Assembly: GCA_022520065.1 (NCBI GenBank)
Contig: GCA_022520065.1_3942.1
Origin: a phage
DNA: 64,000 nucleotides
Reading direction: 5' to 3' (one strand)
A model generated the notes under the pieces. That model saw only the letters and a list, made by a program, of their open reading frames with translations. It searched no databases and had not been told where the DNA came from. Made by a program: the position numbers and the translations under genes. This document shows, piece after piece, positions 761-790 of the stretch; the stretch's first letter is position 1, and each line of letters begins with the position of its first letter.

Positions 761-790
761 TTAAAGGGTTCTTACGAGTATCCTTTAAAG
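761..790 (+). repeat. Hairpin-box family member (CCTTAAAGG stem, TTCTTRCGAG loop)
   Basis: ccttaaagg-gttcttacgagta-tcctttaaagg; related copies near 1613-1640 and 4108-4133. Confidence 0.45.

Follow-up and report, generated by a model that had tools for sequence, protein, structure and literature searches.

A family of conserved, non-terminator RNA hairpins in the tRNA-array spacers of a Felixounavirus

The spacers of the tRNA array in this Felixounavirus (Ounavirinae) carry a family of near-identical RNA hairpins that is conserved and does not consist of terminators. The hairpins exist, lie on the transcribed strand, are under both purifying and structural selection, have no terminator tail and abut the next gene. 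As to their function, the reading to which we tentatively incline, without giving it even odds, is that they would serve as boundary and stability hairpins within long non-coding polycistronic precursor RNAs. The window, by which is meant the whole stretch of 64,000 nucleotides analysed, shares 95–97% identity over its first 6 kb with Felix O1-like E. coli and Salmonella phages. Its array houses 26 tRNA genes, all on the plus strand, between 69 and 5216, with the following transcription signals:

13-42, plus strand: sigma-70-type promoter (TTGACA-18-TAAAGT with TG), preceding the array
1413-1441, plus strand: internal sigma-70-type promoter (TTGACA-17-TATAGT), driving the tag-like RNA and the tRNAs downstream
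5254-5313, plus strand: intrinsic terminator, a long hairpin followed by U6 (fold -25.4 kcal/mol, z -5.2), the first canonical one past the array
5379-5405, plus strand: second intrinsic terminator past the array, from the terminator scan

The internal promoter equals 'P45' of Felix O1 (PMC3185647). In the array region the terminator scan placed plus-strand terminators only downstream of tRNA-Cys; with two promoters reading into the array and no terminator until past tRNA-Cys, it follows that the array is transcribed as a long non-coding polycistronic RNA. The junctions between consecutive tRNAs are mostly 1–9 nt long, AU-rich, and end in UUAAU followed by G. A stable hairpin abuts the leader of the next RNA where the spacer is longer or where a non-tRNA RNA precedes, and the usual RNase P leader of the array, (U)UAAU followed by G, comes right after each array hairpin box. 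Six members of the family were located in the window:

756-793, plus strand: hairpin box h1, core 761-788 (UUAAAGGGUUCU-UACG-AGUAUCCUUUAA); -15.1 kcal/mol, z -3.4; 46.7 bits with the covariance model (CM)
1606-1640, plus strand: hairpin box h2, 16 bp with a UAA loop; -17.4 kcal/mol, z -4.1; CM 19.8 bits
2213-2302, plus strand: long relative hL, about 21 contiguous bp with a branched top; -37.6 kcal/mol, z -5.5; an inverted repeat
4105-4132, plus strand: hairpin box h3 (UCUAAGGAUUCU-UGCG-AGAGUCCUUAAA); -13.6 kcal/mol, z -4.7; CM 42.4 bits
32855-32896, minus strand: hairpin box B, core 32862-32889 (UUAAAAGGUCUU-UAAG-AGGGUCUUUUAA); CM 30.3 bits; within the MFE fold
32993-33033, minus strand: hairpin box A, 19 bp (CAUCACUUAAGAGUCUUUG-AAA-AGGGUUUUUAAGUGAUG); CM 17.4 bits (32999-33027); in the MFE and centroid folds

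The covariance model was built from h1, h3 and the Erwinia-phage copies, and the whole window was scanned with it without filters. The sequences that a preliminary description had reported for the array are indeed present, to within 1–3 nt of the places given: ccttaaagg, gttcttacgagta and tcctttaaagg at 759-791, gggctttctaagagagtctttaaag at 1614-1638, ctaaggattcttgcgagagtccttaaa at 4106-4132, and the arms cttctaag and cttagaag at 2231-2238 and 2277-2284, respectively. A repeat search grouped 759-788, 1608-1637 and 4103-4132 as a single 30-nt repeat family with 67–70% identity, and on folding h1, h2, h3 and hL were all far more stable than their shuffled counterparts (z -3.4 to -5.5). Hairpins of 10 bp or more number 14 in the 1,717 nt of array spacer that are neither tRNA nor ORF, whereas dinucleotide shuffles have 3.6. 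Over the 5' arm plus loop, two spacer hairpins agreed at best in 12/16 positions, and two pairs reached 11/16; since none of 300 shuffles attained either level of similarity, the resemblance between h1, h2 and h3 is beyond chance and the family is real.

Each element comprises a stem of 12–16 bp capped by UACG, UGCG or UAA. The true loop is UACG in h1 and UAA in h2; in h3 the window has UGCG where nearly all relatives have UACG. The stretch TTCTTRCGAG, earlier taken for a conserved loop, is mostly base-paired (UUCU/AGAG) and is thus largely stem. The alignment of h1 with h3 is free of gaps over 28 nt. Each arm runs from a purine block into a pyrimidine block (AAGGG-UUCU and AGAG-UCCUU), so that the arms pair through several G·U pairs. 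By folding, the longest stems are those of hL (~21 bp), box A (19 bp), box B (12+6 bp) and h2 (16 bp), while h1, with 9+2 bp (+4), and h3, with 10 bp (+5 across a 3x3 loop), are shorter. The UACG and UGCG loops of h1, h3 and the Erwinia-phage copy recall UNCG tetraloops, but the closing pair is U-A instead of the stabilising C-G, and the other members have UAA, UAAG or GAAA.

The array copies end 0–4 nt 5' of the next structured RNA, namely the third Y-RNA-like gene, tRNA-Arg, tRNA-Leu and tRNA-His, respectively. A small GC hairpin (739-759, after tRNA-Asp) precedes box h1, and the third Y-RNA-like gene follows it from ~790; the box is 92–95% identical in SUSP2, Michonne, Sf13 and EcSzw-2, and at columns 7/22 it has undergone a compensatory change from G-C to A-U, for which Felix O1 provides the A·C intermediate. 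The top of its stem is weakened by a U·U mismatch. Box h2 is the 3'-terminal hairpin of an RNA resembling the tag portion of tmRNA (~1448-1605) and ends 4 nt short of tRNA-Arg(UCU). In Mooglevirus and Suspvirus its stem shows changes from C-G to U·G and from G·U to G-C, and Felix O1 and SUSP2 have in its place another hairpin, longer but with comparable TAAAGGG arms. The apex at h2, which reads UAAG in the window, is not preserved across relatives, and this turnover would argue for a structural requirement over strict sequence recognition. The stem of hL is made up of words of the family (CUUCUAAGG and CUUAGAAG) and ends 1–2 nt before tRNA-Leu(UAG); between genera it is 72–74% identical, and the stem is preserved through changes from G·U to A-U, C-G to U·G and U-A to G-C, as read by eye from the alignment. 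Box h3 takes up the 31-nt spacer that separates tRNA-Gln(CUG), with its CCA end at 4102, from tRNA-His at 4134, and was found in all 249 phage records matching its locus, in 246 of them at 90% identity or more.

The preliminary description had let its proposal hang on conservation in related genomes, and the family is conserved there. In Suspvirus and Mooglevirus, h1, h2 and h3 are 90–95% identical to the window; in the same comparison the tRNAs are 91–94% identical, an array ORF 76–80% and other spacer RNAs 64–78%. The three boxes are under purifying selection and are conserved on a par with the tRNAs. In the distant Erwinia phage phiEa21-4 (Kolesnikvirus), where the tag-like RNA is only 80% identical, a 16-nt core, GGTTCTTACGAGAGTC, is the same letter for letter; the consensus box there (L006 5256-5283, 42.8 bits) occupies the place equivalent to h2, at the 3' end of the tag-like RNA and directly 5' of tRNA-Leu. 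A comparison of seven copies, orthologues and paralogues together, gave 90.5% of cells paired and changes on both sides in 4 of the 12 pairs, while slid controls were 38–62% paired with zero double changes. G·U pairs are retained at columns 8/21 and 9/20. The two top pairs are invariant in the copies compared, so for them covariation furnishes no proof of pairing. The CM gives scores of 42–47 bits on the sense strand as against 15–22 bits on the antisense strand, and these much higher sense scores, together with the G·U pairs, identify the RNA of the transcribed strand as the structure under selection. All six copies in the window are oriented sense to local transcription.

It is highly improbable that the boxes are DNA-level elements with no role as RNA, whether mobile palindromes of the REP/MITE type or a T4-like recombination hot spot. 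Such an origin would suit the several dispersed copies, the different array positions that the consensus form takes from lineage to lineage (in phiEa21-4 it closes the tag-like RNA, in Felix-like phages it separates tRNA-Gln from tRNA-His) and the existence of short and long variants at the h2 site. The sense orientation of six copies out of six speaks against it, as do the G·U pairs, which on the opposite strand are A·C mismatches; nor was any clean presence/absence polymorphism seen, h3 being there in every record that matches its locus. The recombination hot spot was rejected because the deletion end points in three relatives (ESCO56, Si3 and VSe102) lie inside tRNAs or in a 28-nt repeat of the Y-RNA-like genes, never in a box. 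The promoter-early stem-loop (PeSL) cassettes of T4-type phages and the enterobacterial REP/BIME sequences are likewise repeated intergenic stem-loops within one genome; unlike them, the boxes have no attached promoter, stand away from rearrangement break points and are all in the sense orientation, and the 36-nt box has no E. coli match. Mimicry of host sequence was rejected on the same ground, since a BLAST search of 5,426 complete E. coli genomes with the 36-nt box came back empty, its sensitivity being limited by the short query.

The sites at 32866-32900 and 33001-33010, noted earlier only as places rich in the words of the family, are by the covariance model true related hairpins, on the minus strand. 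Box B scores 30.3 bits on that strand and 11.9 bits on the plus strand; all 12 of its pairs form in the CM alignment, three of them being G·U, and its core is extended by UACCUU/AAGGUA. It is conserved in SME50, SP116 and KPS64 (23.8–25.7 bits), and box A is likewise conserved in three relatives (15.7–17.7 bits). The apices of boxes B and A differ from those of h1 and h3 (UAAG, GAAA and UAAA, the h2 site included). The stretch that carries them is flanked by minus-strand genes and lies 3' of a strong minus-strand promoter (TTGACA at ~33090, TATACT at ~33062).

This promoter-driven non-coding stretch (32775-33090, minus strand) is situated between a ligase-like gene and the next minus-strand gene. 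Each box in it is followed by a G/U-rich run of repeats of the types GGUAUGG, GGUAGGG and GGUAAGG, the plus strand being nearly free of G. Its fold has a z of -5.1, relatives differ in the number of units, and each genome has 2–5 matching places. A search with Rfam 15 over 32.6-33.3 kb gave no match.

The words themselves require a separate account. An excess of CTTAAAAG- and CTTTAAAG-like words was borne out across the window (16 copies of CTTAAAAG against 4.8 expected, and 9 of CTTTAAAG against 2.8), but not the proposal that they are concentrated between genes, most copies being in coding sequence or terminator loops; this general excess is separate from the hairpin family. The cluster reported at 38474-38620 yields only a chance-level CM match (38524-38549, 13.8 bits, E ~0.9), and the CTTAAAAG cluster at 38.4-38.6 kb was rejected as a member of the family by this score, being a different, AT-rich word cluster. 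The region 38400-38625 is an AT-rich divergent intergenic region containing tandem TTGACA boxes, three CTTAAAAG words and one CTTTAAAG, and is probably a promoter or regulatory region.

The suggestion of the preliminary description that the boxes are not generic terminators agrees with all that was found: every copy lacks a T/U tail, none was called by the terminator scan, and the next RNA begins 0–4 nt further on. The sequences 3' of the hairpins are GCAGAAGA, UAAUGCAC, UAAUGGGA and AAUGUGGC, none of which is a U run. That they act as terminators or attenuators within the array is therefore improbable in the extreme, stable stem-loops though they are. The tRNA or Y-RNA-like genes that follow them so closely have no promoter of their own, and the canonical terminators elsewhere in the window, with U6–U7 tails, look unlike the boxes. 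In the record for Michonne a feature labelled 'terminator' covers the homologue of h3, whose counterpart in the window has no U tail there; the boxes have thus been mis-annotated as terminators in at least one relative.

On the boundary and stability reading, host endonucleases would separate the products of the array. RNase P might make the 5' end of the tRNA that follows, and RNase E might cut the short, AU-rich, single-stranded segments flanking the stem. The hairpin might then be retained as a 3'-terminal cap against 3' exonucleases, which would fit the tag-like RNA with its h2 and the RNA at 2050-2212 with its hL, or be released as a discarded trailer, which would fit h3 after tRNA-Gln; hairpins may also insulate the folding of adjacent RNAs. 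The identity of the acting nuclease, and the retention of the hairpin, we only infer. Homologues of the tag-like RNA bear on the case of h2. Past the conserved core, SP-058 has an intrinsic terminator (GCCCAUC..GAUGGGC-U7) and Vi01 a long stem with a U run; as these homologues end there in a terminal hairpin, h2 holds the terminal-hairpin place, but within an operon, and the 3' end of its RNA must accordingly come from cutting.

There is precedent in E. coli, whose tRNA transcripts lose their hairpin trailers endonucleolytically, through cleavage by RNase E immediately 3' of the CCA (PMC5291269) or by RNase P (PMC4176162); hairpins of this kind are also reported to influence the order of processing by RNase P (PMC2241853). 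The boxes resemble these trailers, which are Rho-independent terminator stems removed by RNase E, RNase P or PNPase, in being stable stem-loops placed a few nucleotides after a CCA end or before the next RNase P site, in needing endonucleolytic removal and in a potential effect on processing order (PMC5291269, PMC4176162, PMC2241853). They differ in that the U tract is absent, transcription continues and the position is internal to an operon, and also in forming a family related in sequence whose members flank non-tRNA RNAs too. Three points count against the boundary and stability reading. A structural role alone does not explain the identity of 10–16 apical nucleotides in h1, h3 and the Erwinia-phage copy; a trailer as stable as h3 looks like a hindrance where the CCA end of tRNA-Gln needs release; and most junctions in the array function with no hairpin at all.

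Less probably, though with a better claim than the other alternatives, the boxes could be substrates of host RNase III, a family of intercistronic double-stranded signals like those of T7, with cleavage inside the stem separating the flanking RNAs. E. coli RNase III prefers double-stranded RNA of about two helical turns (roughly 20 bp), often with an internal loop, and several members offer 16–21 bp (hL, box A, box B with its 12+6 bp, and h2). In its context h3 folds with 10 bp in the upper stem and 5 bp in the lower, a 3x3 internal loop lying between them; this layout recalls the sites of T7, whose early transcript likewise has a family of look-alike hairpins at the gene boundaries of a polycistronic phage RNA. 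However, only 10–13 bp are continuous in h1 and h3, which is short for the E. coli enzyme, and the lower stem of h3 would need the acceptor ends of two tRNAs. The T7 sites are ~20 bp long and interrupted by a conserved internal loop, their cleavage is proven, and the half that is left after it stabilises the upstream RNA; the boxes differ in that three of the six members are shorter, the genes they flank encode non-coding RNAs, and their cleavage is hypothetical.

The apical identity that the boundary and stability reading leaves over is what a dedicated RNA-binding or processing protein, of phage or host, might recognise. Such a sequence-specific factor, an idea already put forward in the preliminary description, would read the apical UUCUUACGAG on an AAGGG/CCUU stem; this is plausible in itself but seems rather unlikely. 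In its favour, h1, h3 and the phiEa21-4 copy share an invariant apex of 10–16 nt above a covarying lower stem, the pairing of the two top pairs is, as already mentioned, unproven by covariation, and the U·U mismatch loosens the top of the h1 stem. Set against this are the different apices at the h2 site and in both copies near 32.8 kb, the replacement of the h2 box in Felix O1 and SUSP2, and the lack of any candidate protein that co-varies with the box. In addition, phiEa21-4 keeps the box although Kolesnikvirus is apparently devoid of the gene for a Ro-like RNA-binding protein described below. This absence is suggested indirectly: the gene has matches in 710 records, and Erwinia is not among the ten commonest organism names (the tenth having 23), while ~30 Erwinia phage records match the array. 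It is similarly improbable that the box is a shared address label, with UUCUUACGAG at its apex, by which one dedicated factor coordinates the maturation or turnover of the non-coding RNAs of this phage group. The labelled set would be the tRNAs, the tag-like RNA, the Y-RNA-like genes and the G/U-repeat RNA at 32.8 kb; if that were true, Ounavirinae would possess in the box an RNA-processing signal of their own, whose ancestral copy would be the one that ends the tag-like RNA.

A motif common to unrelated phages was also considered and rejected. In 2.9 million viral contigs of IMG/VR the 16-mer GGTTCTTACGAGAGCC had 21 matches, no more in effect than the 19 of its reversed control, a result that weighs equally against the dedicated binder. 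The shorter 14-mer GGTTCTTACGAGAG matched many IMG/VR contigs, including intergenic hairpins in Erwinia jumbo phages of ~265 kb and in Hafnia/Enterobacter phages, but no hairpin-forming match outside Ounavirinae adjoined a tRNA. In pEa_SNUABM_17 (L018 ~6950-6990) and a phage of the Hafnia/Enterobacter type (L064), intergenic hairpins have the apical 16-mer GGUUCUUACGAGAGCC on another lower stem, and two jumbo-phage relatives differ by one change from G-C to G·U. By the reversed control their number is that expected by chance, and they are treated as such.

Several further identifications were tried and rejected. Rfam 15 gave no match over h1 and h2. For hL the hit was RF00778 (2209-2308, 29.1 bits against a gathering threshold of 52) and for h3 RF03912 (4088-4149, 22–24 bits against 92), both plant/animal microRNA families. 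The T-arm and anticodon arm of a tRNA each have a 5-bp stem and a 7-nt loop with the T-loop or anticodon-loop consensus; stems of 12–16 bp with loops of 3–4 nt do not fit a mimic of either arm or a decoy for an anticodon nuclease, and the likeness to tRNA arms is confined to the start of the 5' arm, AGGGUUC, and the apex CUUACGA (compare the tRNA-Val loop CUUACAA). The 3' arm, GUCUUUAAAGAUUAAU, was considered as an antitermination signal like rrn boxA, which is GCUCUUUAACAA, and was dismissed, the segment being sequestered in the stem and the 5' arm being equally conserved.

Neither the Felix O1 genome paper nor the 2025 paper on Sf14 tRNAs mentions the hairpins, and no transcriptome of a Felix O1-like phage was found in the literature. 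The family is ordinary in kind, while its detail is undescribed in the Felix O1 literature. The usual annotation of a phage tRNA array is a string of tRNAs separated by junk; here the spacers are conserved at the level of tRNAs and are built from structural modules that recur. Should the boxes govern the order or efficiency of processing, they would help to fix the dose of each phage tRNA and small RNA, molecules now discussed as tools of counter-defence and of translation takeover. They also mark cleanly where three unannotated RNA genes end.

The neighbouring Y-RNA-like genes and the tag-like RNA are of more interest than the boxes. The Y-RNA-like module is present in four plus-strand copies between 233 and 1020 (~233-316, 400-470, 790-875 and 878-1020). 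In each, the outer helix of 4–5 bp covaries (UGAC/GUCA, UUAC/GUAA, UUGC/GCAA and GAGC/GCUC), the internal loop AGA/G is invariant, and the inner helix AGACC(AA or GU)/(UU or AC)GGUCU is followed by ACAGCAA, which is likewise invariant. Enclosed in the fourth copy is a circularly permuted tRNA-like domain in the order anticodon-like arm, T-arm, acceptor stem closed by GAUG and D-arm, and in this the copy resembles the tRNA mimic YrlA, though the Rfam YrlA model gives no match to the copies in the window. Just upstream of the window, as judged from relatives, is a gene (DUF2828 and DUF7788) that is a full-length homologue of a mycobacteriophage 'Ro-like RNA binding protein' (33% identity, E 1e-74), and the mycobacteriophage gene has a weak YrlA match just downstream. 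The phiEa21-4 stretch L006 contains no exact copy of the motif AGAAGACC.

The tag-like RNA (1448-1605, plus strand), whose promoter at 1413-1441 is so placed that transcription starts at AUAGUUUUCG, contains after AUAAAU the reading frame GCA AAC GAC AAU GUU UUU CUG GCA GUA GCU UGA, that is, ANDNVFLAVA*. Homologues occur in 602 phage records from unrelated groups, among them Kolesnikvirus, Ackermannviridae (Vi01, Cba120), Carvajevirus, Schitoviridae (SP-058), Sashavirus and the 108-kb Cyrano. Their tags include ANDAQFLAVA, ANEEMYLAVA, ANDNTFLAVA, ANDDVVLMAA and ANEERFLMAA, synonymous changes are present, and there is covariation in helices and a pseudoknot surrounding the stop codon. Neither an acceptor nor a tRNA-like domain was found in this RNA, to which the Rfam tmRNA models give only 15–29 bits and ARAGORN no call. 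The survey of the tmRNA Website lists no such phages (PMC4131195), while the genome announcement for Moogle reports an ssrA call by ARAGORN (PMC4319497).

Rearrangements of the array were seen in relatives. VSe102 (L151 ~695-722) has lost 425-874 through recombination between the identical 28-nt 5' segments of Y-RNA-like copies 2 and 4, and in ESCO56 (L149) deletions fuse tRNA genes together. Michonne (L003 3044-3552) and EcSzw-2 (L005) have a gene for an HNH endonuclease just downstream of hL, directly after a duplication of the first 11 nt of tRNA-Leu(UAG).

Other features of the array, all on the plus strand, deserve brief mention. The sequence at 1866-1945 resembles a tRNA in its T-arm, its CCA end and a CUCCAAA loop (anticodon CCA, Trp); it is not called by ARAGORN, scores 23 bits against tRNA-Sec in Rfam, and is 71% similar to tRNA-Arg(UCU) over 42 nt. 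At 4133-4134 tRNA-His has U instead of G at position -1 despite a discriminator C, and the annotators of Felix O1 classed this gene as a pseudo-tRNA. A 22-bp stem (1016-1037/1138-1159) surrounds 100 nt and is poorly conserved (64–67%). The spacer at 1722-1865 holds a structured RNA with a conserved core, GGAGGUGGUCUGUAUCUC, that is common to phiEa21-4, and at 2711-2806 a 96-nt element closed by AGAGGUC/GACCUCU is 92–97% conserved.
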